From contig JAHRHZ010000062.1 in the NCBI GenBank assembly GCA_024137785.1, forward strand, positions 25,646,533-25,689,063: a stretch of DNA of 42,531 nt, read 5' to 3'. The notes below the pieces were generated by a model. The model saw only the letters and a program-made list of their open reading frames with translations, was not told the origin of the DNA and made no database searches. Origin of the DNA: Ginglymostoma cirratum. Lineage: Eukaryota. A program made the translations under genes and the position numbers. The stretch's first letter is position 1, and every line of letters begins with the position of its first letter. Below, piece by piece: positions 635 through 19,501 of the stretch.

Positions 635-955
635 CAAATATTGTCAAAACATGACTGGATGAGACAGGCTTATTTGAAGTCCCAGTGTGAAGAATTTGCA
701 TTTTGAACTCTTTTCCGTGGTCCACGTAAGTTGGAGTGAATGTCCTTTTGGACCATCGAGAGTACGACCCAGATGATCCATCGAATACAATGTCACCCAT
801 TTCAATTCCACCTTCAGTTTTCTCAAACCCTTTGAGCCAGAATATTTCGTTGTCTTTTGGATAGAAATCGTAAGCTTTACAGAAAAGGGTTACAGGTTTT
901 CCTACCTCCGGGTGAACAGGATCAACTGTAACTTCTGTTAGCTTTGGTGCTAGTA
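635..955 (-). CDS. NCR3LG1: Exon 8, Ig C1-like domain (post-TM); gene continues beyond the left edge
   Basis: Acceptor tttgtttgtctgcag|TA, donor TTTG|gtaagc, 321 nt. LAPKL...VTLFCKAYDFYP...IFWLK...DHGKEFKMQILH, with the F-strand Cys replaced by Met. An assembly gap (1151-1250) lies in the preceding intron. Confidence 0.85.
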
Positions 956-1105
956 CTGCAGACAAACAAAATAAACAGTATTTTTGAGTTTGTATTAATG
1001 AAAATGCCACTATTTTTAAAGATCTCAAGTATCCCTTAATAAATTGTCAACCGTTGTTTTCTTGAACAAAGTGTTGCATTTCACCGACCCTCATTTCCAC
1101 CCCCA

Positions 1106-1106
<1 letters not shown>

Positions 1107-1150
<44 letters not shown>
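1107..1150. repeat. (CA)n microsatellite, at least 22 units, abutting an N gap
   Basis: Read directly. Confidence 0.98.
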
Positions 1151-1250
1151 NNNNNNNNNNNNNNNNNNNNNNNNNNNNNNNNNNNNNNNNNNNNNNNNNN
1201 NNNNNNNNNNNNNNNNNNNNNNNNNNNNNNNNNNNNNNNNNNNNNNNNNN
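1151..1250. other. Assembly gap (100 N)
   Basis: Run of N. Confidence 1.
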
Positions 1251-1445
1251 GTTGCTGGAAAAGCTCAGCAGGTCTGGCAGCATCTGTGAAGGAGAGGACA
1301 GAGTTACCGTTTTGTGTCCGGTGACCCTTCCTCAGCGGTGACCCTTCCTCAGAACTGAGGAAGTGTCACCCGACCTGAAACGATCACTCTGTTTTTTCCT
1401 TCATAGATGCTGCCAGACCAGCTGAGCTTTTCCAGCAACTTTGTT
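1251..1445. mobile_element. Palindromic Penelope-like-element (PLE) terminal-repeat derivative, family A
   Basis: Arms gttgctggaaaagctcagcaggtctggcagcatct and agatgctgccagaccagctgagcttttccagcaac are reverse complements. The centre carries ctgaggaag...gaaacg. Confidence 0.7.
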
Positions 1446-2654
1446 ATTGAATATTGTGAGGCCATTCAAGCCTAATTTTCCACATACTTGGAGGTTGGAT
1501 TTTGTAACGGTGGCATCATGGTTCGTTTTGCGAAGGGGTTATAAAAACTAAATTAGGTATGACAGTCCTTCCAAAACCGTGATATAACCCAGTATATGTC
1601 AGACAGGCAGGGACCCGAGGAGTACCAATTGATCTTTGTATGCACTGTGCTGCTTTAGGACACAGAGCTTAAGTATTGAAATTATTTCAATGAAGCTATA
1701 ACCTTTTTTTTATTCTACCTCACCAGAGCTTATCATTCAAAAAGGTTCTACCCAAGTCTTTCTTTCTTATTTTTGTTTGCAATTATTTTGGGCTTTTGTT
1801 TTAATTCTTGTATTTTTAAACAACAAAGAATATCAAATGGAATAGATTTCATAGGCAGCAAACCAAAACAACTGCAATTTCCTCAGGAACTGAAAATAGA
1901 GGCAGAGGATGGCCATAAGTAAAAAGCTCATTTAGAGAGTTATTATACATTAGAATACAAGAATGATTCAACGAAGTACAGCACTGAGCCACAAAAGATG
2001 GCATTAGATCAAAGCTTAATCAAAGAGGGGGATTTTAGCAAGTCAGCAATAAGACCAAGTGAATGGGCTCTCGTACCCCAGTGGTAGAGAGGTGGTGCAG
2101 AAATGAGGGGCAATTTCATAATTCCGTCATTCTATAGAAGAAAACAACCAAGTTAATTCAATTTTTGGGTGCACCCTTATCTCAAATCAGATCACTTCAG
2201 GTTATTGGCCTTCTCCACAGACCCTTTACAATGCAAAAGTAGTCTGCTGGTAATTTCAGTCATTAATTTAAATTTGAATATTAGTTTCAGGTTTTTTTTT
2301 TCCTTAATTCATTTATGCATTTTTCAATCCCAACTACAGTATTTAATACCCAAGCCAGATTCTGTTGTTGAAATAATGATGATGCAAATGGTATGTGCTG
2401 CGATTGATCCAGAAAATTGCACAGAAAGATCAGTTAAAGGGTTGATGTCTGGCTTAGCTCATGCACGTAAAATGTACAGTCCAAGTTGCCATCAGATTTG
2501 TCAGCATACCACAAATGGTACAGAGCTGCTGAATTTATGTAACAATGGATGAACTAAACATGCCAGAGAGAATTTGGGCTGTTCTGAACTCACTGCAGAA
2601 AGTTACGAGGTTGATCTGAAGTCAGACAAGAAACCCATTGTGGATGATGGATTC

Positions 2655-3045
2655 AAGCAAAAGAACTTTAGGGAGCCTAAAAGGCAATTAAAATCGAGGA
2701 TGAACAAAAGACCAGAAATCAAGAGACGCAGAGGTCTTGGAGGGTTGTGGTGGTGGGTGGAATTACACAGGTAGGAGCAGGCGAGACCACAGATGGATAC
2801 AAAAACAAGGATGAAAATTTGAAAACCAAAACGTCGCTTCACAGTGAGCCATTGCAAGGTCAATGAGCACAGCGGTGAATGAAATAGGGATTTGATGAAA
2901 GTTAAAAGGGCAGCAACATTTTAGATGATCTCAAGTTAGCACAGTGTAGAACTTGGGAGACCAGTCAGGAATGCATTGGGACTGTCATGTCTAAAAGCTA
3001 ACAAATGTATGAATGAGAATTTCAACAGAGGAGCTAAGACAGAAA
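2655..3045 (-). mobile_element. Degenerate L2-type LINE fragment
   Basis: Similar to 37650-38285; purine-rich antisense of an L2-like ORF2 3' end. Family assigned from memory. Confidence 0.45.
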
Positions 3046-3239
3046 CAAAGTACTAAAAAATTAAAGTTTCTTCAGGCACTAATTGTTGACGACTTTAGGA
3101 AATCATCATTCCAAAGGCAATTTTTACATAACTTTTATCTTGCTTTTCCTCCATCTTTCCTGGACATTAAACTCTCCCAAGCAAGTCTTTATTTCCACTT
3201 CTATCCTTGTGCTGTAAATTTCAGCACCTGATGGTGACA

Positions 3240-4190
3240 CAGACACCAGTCACAACAATGCTGTAAATGTCTCACTGACATTTGGGACGAACGTCAAATT
3301 GGAAGATCTGTTCCATGGAATTGTCAAGCATCAACATGACATAGTTATACTCATAGAATTATAAAAGGCAGCCAACACCCTAGACTCATTGTTCATATTC
3401 CTGGGTATGTCCTTAATGAGCAACAAGACAGATCCACAGGAGACGACAAAGATTAGCCCTGGGTGTCTTCTATTTCAGTGGCATTAGCTTAAATATGGGC
3501 AAGGTAACCTCCTGCTGATTACCACCTATCGTTTGCTTTTGGCTGATCAATCAATACTTCTCAAACACAACTTATACAAAGGACTGAGACCTGCAAGGGC
3601 ATGGAATATACGCTCAGAAATGAAGAATGCATCAACTGCAAGTAGGGTAGCTGCAAGTAAGCCAATCAAAGTGAAGAAAAATCTTCCTTGATTGTAATAG
3701 ATATATTAGTGGAGAAGCAAATAGTTCAGTAAATGCCAGACTGGTTGGAGTGAAATCCTATCTTTACACAGAATATGCTCTCCACCATATTATGCAACAT
3801 GAATAATATGGTAAATGGGATAACATTAGCACAGATCTAGCAGCTTACAACTTTGCATCCATGAGGTGCAATAATTCACCACAATCAGTACTTCATGGCT
3901 GTCAATATCTTTTATCCGATCATTGCCAACAAGCTAGGTGATTAGGCCTAGTATAATAGGGAGTGTACTAGAGCATGCCAGGAGCAGCATCAGGAACACC
4001 TAAAAATAACAAAATGTCAACCTGGGGAAGCGACAAGAAAAGGCTACCATTTATGTGAAACTGCTGAAGTAGATGCTTCAGACAGAGAGGACAAATGACA
4101 ATACCAATGGACCAATATAAAGCTCTGTAGTGTTGCCATATGCAGTCATGAATACTGCTATCCAAATAAACAAGTAATGAGAGGAGAATC
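3240..4190 (+). mobile_element. Degenerate LINE endonuclease-region fragment (same family as 10100-12072)
   Basis: Colinear similarity with 10480-11470, e.g. gtcaagcatcaacatgacatagttatactc vs gtcaagcaacagccttacgtagtcata, and acagatctagcagcttacaac vs ggatctaccaactcaagac. Confidence 0.6.
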
Positions 4191-4346
4191 CTGCATGTTA
4201 TGTGCTTAAAAGTCTCTGAAATTTTAAACTGTTTATACAAATGTGTGAGAAAGACTTTAAGAGTTTGAACCAATTATAAAAGGATCAATTATAATTTTCT
4301 TGGGTACTATGAAATTCTAGTACATATGACTAGTAACCTGGCAACT

Positions 4347-4826
4347 TGTGAAGGTAACTGGCACACAGATACAGAAAGATAAACACAGATAACCCAGTGA
4401 GGACAGGAAAGAAATCACTTTCATGAAGTGATCAGTTTTTTGTTTCACAGGAAAAGAGATAGAAATCTTTGGGAGGCTCTGAACAACCTGGTTGAAAGCT
4501 CAGAGACACCAGAGAGCTTGGTGTTTTCCCAGAAGTGGCCAAACCATGAACCAGGTTGTTTTTGGTTGTTCAACTGAAAAGGAACTTTGAAAGCTACACA
4601 CTCAGGAATGTCAATGATGCAAGGAACAGAAGATACTGTAGGGGTGTGTGTTAATAGTGATGATAATTGTACCTGAACCTTGGAGGTGAAAGTTATTGTC
4701 AGGTAGGACTCCTGAACTACCCTGTGTGAATAAAGAACTTTTGAGCAATAAGTGAAGCAAACAGTTATGGTTGCATACGCTGTATCTTGTTGTATTAACT
4801 ATATAAAGCAAATTTACCTTTTCACA
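4347..4826 (+). mobile_element. Possible solo-LTR-like remnant
   Basis: tgtgaaggtaa ... ttaccttttcaca terminal inverted motif with an internal AATAAA at about 4729. No TSD found. Confidence 0.3.
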
Positions 4827-4933
4827 TGTCTGCTAATTCATGTTTAATTTGGTGGTTCTGATTTGTACCAATGTAAAGCTACAAAAAAAAAGTGGAATCT
4901 TGGTAATTTGTTTAATTTGGAGATTATTCACAT

Positions 4934-5290
4934 GGCACAGAGCTCCAGTAGTTAGCACTGCTGCCTCACAGCACCAGGGATCCAGGTTCCATTCCACCCT
5001 CGGGCAACCGTGCGTGTAGAGTTTGCACATTCTCCCCATTTCTATGTGGGTTTCCTCCAGGTGCTCTAGTTTCCTCCCAAAGTCCACAGATGTGCAGGTT
5101 GGATGGACTGGCCATGTTAAATTGTTCATATTGCCCAGGAATATGCTGGTTAGGTGAATTAGTCAAGGGAAATGCAGGGTTACAGGGATAAGGTTGGGAG
5201 GGGTGGATCTGGGTGGGATGTTCTTTGGAGGGTTGCTAATGGACTCAGCAGGCCAAACAGCCTGCTTTCACACTGTAGGGATTCTATGAT
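4934..5290 (+). mobile_element. HE1-like V-SINE
   Basis: Same head, core and tail as the other copies. Confidence 0.85.
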
Positions 5291-5347
5291 TTAGCAAGTT
5301 TCATTGTCTTATAGTTTCTGCATGATGATTTAACAATAGTTACTTAC

Positions 5348-5659
5348 TGAGTTGATCAACCACCCAGTCAACTTCCAATGGCTGTGCTAGACTTTCATGG
5401 CTTACTTGGCAAGTGTATTTCTTCCCAACATCAGTTCTGCTCAGTGTACTCTTTACACTAGTTGTCAGGTGATAGAGTCCATCAATTCCCAGAGTGGGCT
5501 CACTTTGTTCAAAATTTTCTGTCACTTTTTCACCTTGTTTCAACCATGTTATTGTGATTCCGGGAGGGTAAAAAGAACGTATTTGACATTGCAAAGTCAT
5601 GCACTCTCCTGCAACTGGTTTTTCTACATCACACACTATCCTGTCCAATTTTGGTCGGG
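5348..5659 (-). CDS. NCR3LG1: Exon 7, Ig C1 domain (post-TM)
   Basis: Acceptor tttctttttcag|CC, donor CTCA|gtaagt, 312 nt. ARPKL...TLQCQIRSFYP...ITWLK...DGLY...DVGKKYTCQVSHESL is a canonical C1. Confidence 0.9.
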
Positions 5660-5782
5660 CTGAAAAAGAAATGAAAAGATTAAATATACCATAGGCTTTT
5701 AACAGACAAAAATGAGAAAATGGTATCAGTAAACACATTTAATCCATAGTTCTATACAAGGGACGTCAGAAGAATGACATAC

Positions 5783-6157
5783 CTGTAATTTGCAGAAATG
5801 TATCTTTCTGCTTGATAGTGTCAGAGTCGTTATGTTTTACCTCACAGATATACCTTGTTTCTTGGTCTCGCAGTATATCTGGCAAAATAACTAGGACACT
5901 GGTAATACCATAGGATTTATCTTCATATTCTACTTCACTGATTTGATGATGATATTTGGGCTTGTTACCATTGTTAGTAGCAAAGATGGTCCTGTCCTGA
6001 TGCCATCGAACAAGTTCCACATTATTATCCTTCCTGATTTGTTGCCATGTGATTTGAAGAGATTTTGGTTTAAATCCAATTATTGAACAAATCAAGGCTG
6101 CAGGTTCATTATGATAGATATGAAGTGGCACCACAATGTTTGAAATCTTTGGTGGGA
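5783..6157 (-). CDS. NCR3LG1: Exon 6, Ig C1-like domain (post-TM)
   Basis: Acceptor tttccctttcctaaag|TC, donor ACAG|gtatgt, 375 nt. VPPKISNI...LICSIIGFKP...ITW...DQETRYICEVKH. Confidence 0.88.
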
Positions 6158-6397
6158 CTTTAGGAAAGGGAAACAAAATAAAAAAGTCATCTCTTGAAAC
6201 TGAAAGAATTTCCATGTATTAATAAGAACAAGAAAATATTAATATCACAGGTTGCATTTTCTATGATGTAGACAGACTCCAGGCGGCACTACTAACAATA
6301 TGTTACATTGTATGAACAAATACACAAGTTTACAAAAAAAAACAGAATGGATTCATGAAGCATAAAAAAACGTGAAAATAACGTGTACATGATTTAC

Positions 6398-6838
6398 CTG
6401 CTTTAACATCCAGTGTTATAGCTTTTGACTTGGGTTGGGAAACAGTATCATGATAAACTTGAAGAATTAATTCAGCCCCATTATCACTTTTCACATCAGG
6501 ACAGACTTTGACTGTGCCCTCTAACTTGAAAGTCCTATTACTGTTACAGGATAAAGTTGGTTCAGAAGGTGAAAAAGATTTATCCTCTTCACAACAATTT
6601 ATAAGAAGCCGCCCTTCATCTTCATTATTTCGGCACATTGATTGCACATTATTTATATTATACCCATCTGTGCTATTCCAATCTAAAATTTCTTTTCCAT
6701 TTCCATTCTCTCTCCTCTTCAAGATTAAAACAACTCGAATCTTCGAAGGTTTAAATCCATAGACTTGGTAATTGATGAAATTTTCTTCCAAATGGTGAAT
6801 GACGGAAGAGGGTTTCATTTCAATAATTTCTGGAGGAA
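6398..6838 (-). CDS. NCR3LG1: Exon 5, degenerate Ig C1-like domain (post-TM, predicted cytoplasmic) with a long insertion
   Basis: Acceptor cttctttattag|TT, donor GCAG|gtaaat, 441 nt open. VPPEII...FINYQVYGFKP...DNGAELILQVYH...ITLDVKA keeps the C1 pattern but lacks both canonical Cys and the C-strand Trp. Confidence 0.85.
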
Positions 6839-12515: not shown

Positions 12516-12626
12516 CTTTTATAGTTCTCCAAAAGAACCATGCAATAAATAATACAGTTCCACAAACAACGAATGCACCAATTATGCTTCCAACAACTGC
12601 TCCAACTGAAGAATCTTTCTCAGGCT
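12516..12626 (-). CDS. NCR3LG1: Exon 4, transmembrane exon: EPEKDSSVGAVVGSIIGAFVVCGTVLFIAWFFWRTIK
   Basis: Not in the ORF track; read by hand. Acceptor gtttcaaatttcag|AG, donor AAAG|gtacca, 111 nt, phase 1-1. About 26 uncharged hydrophobic residues followed by an aromatic belt and an R/K stop-transfer. Confidence 0.88.
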
Positions 12627-19168: not shown

Positions 19169-19501
19169 CTGACACCTGTAGTTCTGAACTCTTTTCAGCT
19201 TTGAGAGGTGTGACAAATACAATACAAGTGTAGTTCCCTTCGTCTTCAATCTGTATATTTGGAAGAAAAAGTGAAGCATCTCCTTTCCGTAATCCAGCTT
19301 CAAAGATCTTTGCTCCTTGTCTTTTTGAAGTATGTTTGCTTCCATCAAAGGTATAGATCTCCTTTCTGGAGGGCCCAAACCACTGCACCCCAACATTTGT
19401 TAGGCTGAAGGCAGTAGAACCAGTAAATTTGCATTCCAGGGAAACATTTTCTGTCACAAAGACATTTGTTGGGTTTGAAAATATGGTCACATCCAAGGTT
19501 T
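19169..19501 (-). CDS. NCR3LG1: Exon 2, IgV domain of B7-H6/NCR3LG1-like protein
   Basis: Acceptor ttctctttatctag|AA, donor TCAG|gtaaga, 333 nt, phase 1-1. V-set hallmarks: VSLEC, VQW, DASLFLPNIQIEDEGNYTC. The GDASL.LP.IQ.E..G.Y.C.V.VTPLKA segment matches my recollection of the human B7-H6 V domain (compared from memory, no alignment run). Confidence 0.93.

Follow-up and report, generated by a model that had tools for sequence, protein, structure and literature searches.

The nurse shark (Ginglymostoma cirratum) B7H6 protein probably carries a cytosolic array of seven Ig domains (D1-D7) in which disulfides have been relaxed, together with a predicted adaptor-recruiting dileucine loop. Folded cytosolic Ig domains are, to our knowledge, a great rarity among type I membrane proteins, and the C1 set is a signature class of the ectodomains of antigen receptors and MHC molecules. 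The gene itself is already known: the protein was deposited as QTT61906.1 under the name nurse shark B7H6, with an architecture visible to its depositors, and Kinlein et al. 2021 is presumably the paper behind the entry. In the literature searched, which did not include the likeliest papers on the nurse shark tail, we found no description of cytosolic Ig domains in B7H6 and no report of either the cysteine pattern or the dileucine motif, while the elephant shark genome supplement gave 0 matches for B7H6, NCR3LG1 or NKp30.

Gene model and identity

The spliced 12-exon frame is identical to QTT61906.1 (P0001; UniRef100_A0A8A9WSM4) across all 1092 residues. Exons 1-8 lie on the minus strand of the window (the whole 42,531-nucleotide stretch analysed) and the remaining exons beyond it (Table 1). 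The protein reads in order signal, V, C1, single transmembrane (TM) segment and seven C1-like domains; exon 8 terminates in a splice donor, and D5, D6, a short linker exon, D7 and the stop codon follow outside the window. Exons 5-8 have AG/GT boundaries and phase 1, and the Ig exons and the TM exon are all phase 1-1. The original prediction that frames and splice sites are intact holds over all 12 exons. Hydrophobic frames in the introns were considered as a second TM exon and rejected, such frames arising by chance and none being present in the deposited protein.

Table 1. Features of the nurse shark B7H6 gene located in the window
Feature	Position	Strand	Details
Exon 1, signal-peptide-like leader, residues 1-33 of QTT61906.1	28271..28370	-	100% match to P0001, GT donor
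Exon 2, V domain	19169..19501	-	C57-W74-C126 intact, two sequons
Exon 3, ectodomain C1	14175..14495	-	C168-W182-C231 intact, extra conserved C198, two sequons
Exon 4, sole TM, residues 261-284, then RTIK	12516..12626	-	Hydropathy peak 2.49
Exon 5, post-TM D1	6398..6838	-	Tyr, Leu, Leu at Cys-Trp-Cys sites; C1-like fold, disordered insert
Acidic dileucine motif DEGRLL / EGRLLI, residues 362-368, D1 loop	6600..6620	-	Predicted clathrin-adaptor signal
Exon 6, post-TM D2	5783..6157	-	Cys-Trp-Cys present; Pfam C1-set E 1.2e-08
Exon 7, post-TM D3	5348..5659	-	Cys-Trp-Cys present; Pfam C1-set E 1.3e-17
Exon 8, post-TM D4	635..955	-	B Cys and Trp present, Met at F Cys site; GT donor; Pfam C1-set E 4.3e-08

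The V plus C1 ectodomain is closest to human B7-H6 (58 bits in one stretch, versus at most 34 per domain for CD276), which is also the top single-domain PDB sequence match of the V domain (58 bits), and its model fits the human structure 3pv7 with an RMSD of 1.8 over 221 columns (TM-score 0.90 by target). The leader, recognized by hydropathy (peak of 1.64 at residues 18-36), and the one TM after the C1 domain are likewise B7H6 / NCR3LG1 traits. The locus sits in a cluster of at least 4 paralogs, with an RPS13 exon 0.5 Mb off and a KCNJ11-like gene 10 Mb off on the same contig; we take RPS13, NUCB2 and KCNJ11 to flank human NCR3LG1. Five runs guessed to be RNA contain 0.66-0.70 of the words of 5343-6838, where the exons alone predict 0.71, a hint that this region is expressed.

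Cysteine pattern and fold of the post-TM domains

In D1 the B-strand Cys, C-strand Trp and F-strand Cys sites are occupied by Y312 (6770-6768), L326 (6728-6726) and L414 (6464-6462), while D4 has C690, W704 and M750 (701-699). These are the losses that the original prediction had described for exons 5 and 8, and its quoted peptides (FINYQVYGFKP, IRVVL, AELILQVYH and EFKMQILH) are all found on the minus strand where it placed them; its numbering and limits for exons 5-8 are exact, and the Cys-Trp-Cys that it assigned to both ectodomain exons and to exons 6 and 7 (D2, D3) is present. It understated the extent of the loss, because the gene continues past exon 8 with D5 (C,W,F at the three sites), D6 (V,W,C) and D7 (C,W,V), all outside the window. 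The B-F pair is thus missing from five of the seven post-TM domains (D1, D4, D5, D6 and D7), and not from two of four; the C-strand Trp is missing in D1.

The confinement of the loss to the post-TM side, also part of that prediction, extends to the 68 homologs scored, the named ones of which span sharks to amphibians: the pair is present in 133 of the 134 pre-TM domains scored versus 129 of the 309 post-TM ones, 2 and 6 gapped segments, respectively, having been left out. A tree covering 56 of the 62 rows requires 1 change at the 4 pre-TM cysteine sites and 33 at the 14 post-TM sites. The post-TM counts are not independent, as the sequences indicate that the losses trace to few ancient events (D1-F, D4-F and D6-B take one change each). 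Both cysteines are retained in 49 of 56 domains homologous to D2 and 60 of 69 homologous to D3 (together about 87%, with 4 changes over their 4 sites), and in 2 of 40 homologous to D4. The corresponding 0 of 56 for D1 is inflated, since that class was picked by likeness to nurse shark D1; by position, the D1 F cysteine is found in 9 of 55 rows. Where a cysteine is replaced the residue is hydrophobic (V, I, F, L, W, M, Y or A) in 211 of 218 cases, and the C-strand Trp is retained in 251 of 253 D2-D7 domains. Cysteine number is narrow in V (exactly two in 47 of 55) and ranges from 0 to 9 in post-TM domains, a scatter like that described for titin M-band domains (PMC6922384). In a more distant set, all 23 domains of three relatives with a C-terminal TM have the pair, and the other 93 proteins have it in 84 of 90 pre-TM versus 91 of 146 post-TM domains.

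These patterns leave almost no room for simple decay of redundant exons in the nurse shark copy. In most comparisons no Ig domain is less conserved than D1 (35% identity to Callorhinchus), and bamboo shark gene models lack D5-D6 or D4-D6, as decay might produce; the frames, however, are open and the splice sites intact, and the aligned orthologs share identical losses at identical positions, with the same hydrophobic replacements in sharks, rays, chimaera, coelacanth, lungfish, reedfish and amphibians. By per-domain protein identity, the measure used to check for decay, D4 and D7 match V in conservation among cartilaginous fish; identity to Callorhinchus is 52% for D4, whereas V reaches 47% and C1 41%. 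At the protein level it is therefore not the case that orthologs keep the cysteines while this copy decays, and the post-TM loss is, on the aligned sequences, a shared one.

The cysteines might instead have been relocated, non-canonical ones forming alternative disulfides or serving in metal or redox sites, in which case the pattern would say little about the compartment. Cysteine density is 0.030 per residue post-TM versus 0.023 pre-TM, and conserved extra sites occur in D1 (394/396), D4 (675/700), D5 (833) and D7 (1002/1043/1070), with C1002 in 30 of 30 and C1070 in 16 of 22. D1 394 and 396 do tend to appear together (17 both, 1 and 15 single, 25 neither), but the extra sites are uncoupled from the canonical cysteine that is left, as seen for D1 312 and 396 (23 both, 12 and 8 single, 14 neither) and D4 690 and 675 (22, 24, 2, 1); nurse shark D4 has a single cysteine, and the count is odd in about half of post-TM domains, although the ectodomain C1 is odd too. 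We regard relocation as quite unlikely.

Loss of the bond is predicted not to have cost the fold. AlphaFold gives beta sandwiches in all nine domains (mean pLDDT 88.2), so that each of the seven post-TM domains is predicted to fold as an Ig sandwich, D1 included (pLDDT 86.7). By fold D1 is closest to the human B7-H6 IgC domain (Z 12.8; 98 residues aligned at an RMSD of 1.7), on a par with MHC class II (Z 12.7) and others. The Pfam C1-set profile scores above cut-off for D2, D3 and D4, and the profile search gave no Pfam Ig match for D1. Among D1-D7 the canonical C1-set trait of B-F pair plus C-strand Trp is present in D2 and D3 only; D1, D4, D5, D6 and D7 are C1-like but non-canonical. Pfam matches to P0001 are to Ig families only, with no Gag-like cytoplasmic region, the tail consisting of Ig domains throughout. 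A fold search with the full-length model gave, apart from B7-H6, mostly long Ig chains at an uninformative RMSD >17, and an Atlas search with a frog relative returned only Ig clusters, NCR3LG1 among them. Complex prediction for two D1-D4 copies gave a score of 0.00 and a mark of 0.32, which bears neither way on the array.

Membrane topology and the D1 dileucine loop

Three further features point to a cytosolic location of D1-D7. Firstly, N-glycan sequons across the 68 homologs are enriched pre-TM (210 observed versus 121 expected) and not post-TM (233 versus 223), with the density higher on the pre-TM side in 57 of 68 proteins, although P0001 itself has five post-TM sequons and four pre-TM. 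Secondly, the post-TM flank is the more positive in 53 of 68 (9 equal, 6 less), and P0001 has no hydropathy peak >1.3 anywhere downstream of the exon 4 TM. From these features we infer a type I topology.

Thirdly, D1 contains an acidic dileucine motif (DEGRLL / EGRLLI) within a segment of pLDDT <50 (347-370), so that the [DE]XXXL[LI] consensus is matched at an exposed, disordered and conserved position. Signals of this type work in the cytosolic tails of proteins, and that of Nef does so from a loop that is exposed and unstructured (PMC2173715). The motif, which was spotted in the alignment before its enrichment was tested, occurs in 26 of 46 D1 inserts versus 2.1 expected, and at 60-115 residues after the TM in 28 of 70 versus 5.2 expected, being absent from the other 42. 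Five other post-TM windows (5/71, 10/65, 6/64, 2/59 and 1/53) and four ectodomain windows (2/82, 8/82, 8/81 and 2/76) are near expectation and the basic-for-acidic version is found in 0 of 70, while the adjacent spacing [DE]xxL[LI] is enriched too (21 of 70 versus 5.4 expected). The motif supports a cytosolic D1 as a separate, sequence-level sign, and on balance we favor its being a working sorting motif. A tyrosine motif in the D6-D7 linker (SPYSNL) is matched in just 5 of 25 D7-bearing homologs and was not counted as support.

If the TM were a type II anchor, or if there were a second span, D1-D7 would lie outside the cell as domains that tolerate bond loss. Bond-less extracellular Ig domains do exist, among them the CD2 and CEA N-domains and 6 of 90 pre-TM domains in the more distant relatives, and C1-set domains are otherwise known from ectodomains. 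Against such a reversal stand the leader-like exon 1, the one TM and the positive-inside bias, as well as the intact disulfides and sequon enrichment of V and C1, the fit of the ectodomain model to 3pv7 and the post-TM position of the dileucine motif, which together make it highly improbable. The original prediction had taken cysteine loss as support for a cytoplasmic location: alone it is weak evidence, limited also by the few events behind the losses and by the intact pair of D2 and D3, but sequons, charge and dileucine motif agree with it. We consider it very likely that D1-D7 lie in the cytosol and, with confidence only slightly lower, that relaxed disulfide selection explains the cysteine pattern, the five domains likely lacking the pair because they are located inside the cell.

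The persistence of the pair in D2 and D3 could alternatively reflect dual use, in which the membrane form is cytosolic as proposed while a TM-skipped, secreted isoform selects for the D2 and D3 disulfides. Skipping would preserve frame because the Ig and TM exons are all phase 1-1, RefSeq isoforms without the TM exon are present in Heterodontus (P0183) and Microcaecilia (P0186), P0013, P0032 and P0070 likewise lack it, and D2 and D3 are precisely the pair-keeping domains. However, the TM-less entries are gene models, sequons are not enriched post-TM, a secreted form would carry five bond-less domains anyway, and cytosolic Ig domains may retain B and F cysteines regardless (PMC6922384). Dual use is thus unlikely, though less so than relocation.

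Proposed mechanism and comparison with known systems

In the mechanism that we propose and regard as fairly likely, D1-D7 are probably cytosolic, and in that compartment the B-F bond likely fails to form, so that selection on the disulfide would have relaxed while core packing remained constrained; because of this a hydrophobic residue would replace the canonical cysteine in five domains, and the cysteines of D2 and D3 would stay as buried, probably reduced, core residues. The ectodomain would bind shark NKp30, for which the paralogs of the cluster, at least 4, are candidates. With AP-1, AP-2 or AP-3 as adaptor, the D1 motif would divert the protein at the surface or the TGN to endosomes/lysosomes, and this routing would set the ligand level visible to NK or T cells. 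By analogy with titin the Ig array could serve as a cytosolic scaffold, a role that we consider possible but doubtful.

Six or seven post-TM Ig domains are maintained across cartilaginous fish, lobe-finned fish, reedfish and amphibians. A broader reading, tentative and with somewhat less than even chances, is that ancestral jawed-vertebrate B7H6 was a membrane ligand with a cytosolic C1-set array that has been shedding disulfides since before the shark/bony-fish split and an adaptor-binding dileucine loop that rationed surface ligand, the array being multiplied in frogs and replaced by a Gag-like tail in the human lineage. The family would offer a natural series for following the adaptation of a disulfide-dependent fold to a reducing compartment, of relevance to intrabody design, and the D1 dileucine pair a direct handle on control of NKp30-ligand surface level in non-mammals.

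Human B7-H6 (NCR3LG1), the NKp30 ligand, has a V + C1 ectodomain and one TM like the shark protein, and the B7-H6 structures 3pv7, 3pv6, 4zso and 6yjp (31-32% identity) are the only low-RMSD matches of the full shark model. The human protein is described in PMC11476788 as 454 aa long and as having an ITIM-like motif and a cytoplasmic region that is Gag-like. The shark protein instead has as its tail about 800 residues in seven Ig domains and lacks the Gag-like region, a human trait that orthology does not require. Titin-type cytosolic arrays resemble D1-D7 in their tandem Ig domains and non-conserved cysteines, some with B and F retained; PMC6922384 describes a scattered cysteine pattern in the titin M-band domains, with the B and F cysteines of one domain 4.0 Å apart. 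Those arrays, however, are soluble I-set filaments, whereas D1-D7 are C1-set-like and directly follow the TM of a type I membrane protein. Shark UrIg2, SIRP, IgH and MHC C1 share the C1-set fold and rank among the best matches of D1 and D3 by sequence and by fold, but UrIg2, as described in PMC12227049, has V plus nine C1 domains all upstream of the TM.

Gene model and membrane topology of nurse shark B7H6

The stretch carrying the noted cysteine losses comprises exons 5-8 of a minus-strand gene, and a search with exon 6 recovered a 1092-aa protein at 100% identity, B7H6 of Ginglymostoma cirratum (QTT61906.1, here P0001). All B7H6 exons mapped in the window (Table) have GT donors, AG acceptors and phase 1, while four further exons lying up to ~9.5 kb beyond the window start encode D5, D6, a linker of 16 codons and D7, where the stop codon lies. 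The spliced 12-exon frame reproduces the deposited protein exactly. An in-frame ATG at 28382-28380 (-), 12 bases 5' of the deposited start, gives MAVR-, matching the Stegostoma model, and may be the true start. Human B7-H6 is the best single-domain PDB match of the V domain and aligns with the ectodomain model at an rmsd of 1.8. RPS13 (0.5 Mb away) and a KCNJ11-like gene (10 Mb away) lie on the same contig; RPS13 and KCNJ11 are neighbours of human NCR3LG1.

Features of the B7H6 locus, with residues at the B-strand Cys, C-strand Trp and F-strand Cys sites (exons mapped from QTT61906.1; V and C1, ectodomain Ig domains; TM, membrane span; D1-D7, C1-like Ig domains after TM)
Feature	Window position	Strand	B, C, F sites	Both cysteines in homologs	Remark
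Leader exon	28370-28271	minus			
V exon	19501-19169	minus	CWC		
C1 exon	14495-14175	minus	CWC		
TM exon	12626-12516	minus			
D1 exon	6838-6398	minus	YLL	0/56	biased low, domains being classed by likeness
Acidic dileucine motif	6620-6600	minus			disordered D1 loop
D2 exon	6157-5783	minus	CWC	49/56	
D3 exon	5659-5348	minus	CWC	60/69	
D4 exon	955-635	minus	CWM	2/40	
D5			CWF	8/35	
D6			VWC	2/28	
D7			CWV	8/25	F site assigned from alignment alone
Paralogs B, C	27-90 kb past start			 	contig ~25.556-25.620 Mb; V-C1-TM + six post-TM Ig domains
Fourth paralog, upstream				 	contig ~25.821-25.832 Mb; V, C1, TM exons read, 70-75% identical to P0080

The representative-library search gave 1720 matches, the best 150 of which were used. 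Twenty matches were identified by name and come from rays, chimaera, sharks, coelacanth, lungfish, reedfish, newt, caecilian and frogs; most have V-C1-TM with Ig domains after it. From 161 proteins (P0001-P0161) we defined 68 homologs in which V, C1 and a single TM precede two or more further Ig domains. P0001 has one TM, and the flank after TM is the more positive in 53/68 homologs (equal in 9, less in 6). Across the 68, sequons are enriched before TM (210 observed vs 121 by shuffling, 15,517 residues) and near expectation after it (233 vs 223, 38,705 residues), and aligned sequon columns at ≥20% occur only before TM; in P0001 itself the count is 4 before TM and 5 after. Both cysteines are present in 133/134 pre-TM vs 129/309 post-TM domains (8 gapped segments excluded). 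The other 93 proteins keep the pair in 84/90 pre-TM vs 91/146 post-TM domains, and in three relatives whose TM is C-terminal it is intact in 23/23. The original prediction took post-TM disulfide loss as a sign of the cytosol; sequon, charge and pair asymmetry agree with it, but the 6 pre-TM losses mean that cysteine loss by itself is no proof of compartment. B7H6 is most likely a type I protein with V-C1 outside and D1-D7 in the cytosol.

Conservation of the cysteine pattern

Re-reading the sequence bore out the peptides and sites quoted for D1 and D4. The claim that some post-TM domains have lost the pair stands for these two and was incomplete, since D5-D7, outside the window, also lack it; the canonical B-F bond is impossible in 5 of the 7 post-TM domains.

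Decay of redundant exons would account for such losses, yet they are common to homologs, as scoring of orthologs confirmed. Scored by position, D1 has the F cysteine in 9/55 rows. In a FastTree phylogeny built from 56 of the 62 rows (6 without ectodomain left out), 1 change is needed across four pre-TM sites vs 33 across fourteen post-TM sites; D1-F, D4-F and D6-B each need a single change, so the evidence amounts to tens of events, not hundreds. The replacements are hydrophobic in 211/218 cases. Identity to Callorhinchus is 47% (V), 41% (C1), 35% (D1), 44% (D2), 40% (D3), 52% (D4), 38% (D5), 47% (D6) and 46% (D7). The AlphaFold2 model of P0001 has a mean pLDDT of 88.2, low only in the leader, TM and residues 347-370 and 983-995, and D1 modelled by itself also folds (pLDDT 86.7). 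Of 48,161 chains, the human B7-H6 IgC domain matches the D1 model best (Z 12.8, rmsd 1.7 over 98 residues), in a tie with MHC class II, SIRP-gamma and Necl-4. Decay is thus ruled out at the protein level. The cysteine pattern is real and conserved; the best interpretation is that C1-like domains have adapted to the cytosol, the gene itself being known and its tail unusual. That reading leaves unaccounted for the high conservation of additional D7 cysteines outside the window (C1002 in 30/30 rows, C1043 in 9/13, C1070 in 16/22), possibly a metal or redox site. Ectodomain C1 has an additional cysteine, C198 (14337-14335, -), kept in 53/58 rows, which, if unpaired, could link a covalent dimer.

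The two tandem downstream paralogs are matched in other cartilaginous fish by P0019 (Pristis) and P0035 (Pristiophorus). Paralog B reads CWV in D1 and D4, CWF in D5 and VWC in D6, while paralog C keeps more cysteines overall, with both present in D1 and D6 and not in D4; from these differing states, losses were stepwise and some predate these duplications. The long tail of P0080 has no Pfam match. In P0036 (Heterodontus), P0049, P0053 and P0065 the tail repeats the cysteine-less D1 alone, with 7 near-identical copies in P0036. Long relatives alternating cysteine-less and intact domains form a frog expansion (P0059, P0073, P0100 and 60 further matches) with up to 14 post-TM Ig domains detected. 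P0107 has V-C1-TM-D1 and then a tachylectin domain (Pfam E 6e-30), which may be a gene-model fusion.

A dileucine motif in the D1 loop

Paired leucines after acids in the disordered D1 loop were spotted in the alignment first and tested second. [DE]xxxL[LI] occurs in 26/46 D1 inserts vs 2.1 expected and, in a fixed window 60-115 residues past TM, in 28/70 vs 5.2 expected, counts drawn from related, non-independent sequences, although the loop surrounding the motif otherwise defies alignment between clades. Nine other windows lie near expectation (highest 10/65 vs 6.2 and 8/82 vs 4.2). Control patterns gave 11/70 (reversed), 21/70 (one residue shorter), 11/70 (one longer), 8/70 (two longer) and 0/70 (basic replacing acidic), with 3.6-5.4 of 70 expected for all motif controls. 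Paralog B has EQQKLI, and 5/14 long frog-type relatives carry the motif within the first 170 post-TM residues. A database isoform, P0003 (Rhincodon X2), skips the D1 exon and thus the motif. The linker exon between D6 and D7 (P0001 980-995), ~3.2 kb past the window start, encodes an ITIM-like SPYSNL; a similar tyrosine motif occurs in only 5/25 homologs, all sharks.

Proposed mechanism and comparison with known systems

Outside the cell, V-C1 would be oxidised and glycosylated. D1 begins four residues past TM; with the bond absent in the cytosol, selection would retain core packing while allowing Val, Ile, Phe, Leu or Met to take the place of cysteine. The D2 and D3 cysteines are probably retained as buried thiols, resembling one titin M-band domain described as keeping its pair (PMC6922384). 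The main alternative is that a TM-less isoform explains the D2/D3 pairs, and RefSeq models skipping the TM exon do exist (P0183, Heterodontus; P0186, Microcaecilia). Acidic dileucine signals are described as acting through AP complexes in cytosolic tails, and the signal of Nef as sitting in a loop that is exposed and unstructured (PMC2173715). With D1-D7 in the cytosol, the D1 loop could likewise link the ligand to clathrin adaptors, which would restrict its surface display, and the post-TM Ig array would serve as a scaffold; these roles are inferred.

The literature search, its reach stopping short of the shark-B7H6 group's own papers, found no account of cytosolic Ig domains in B7H6, the cysteine pattern or the motif; those papers and supplements may already show the post-TM architecture. 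NCR3LG1 is placed beside tapasin in a 2026 survey, of which the accessible portion leaves cytosolic domains unmentioned (PMC13262535). Human B7-H6, of 454 aa, is described as having a Gag-like cytoplasmic part (PMC11476788), whereas the tail of nurse shark B7H6 consists of seven Ig domains.
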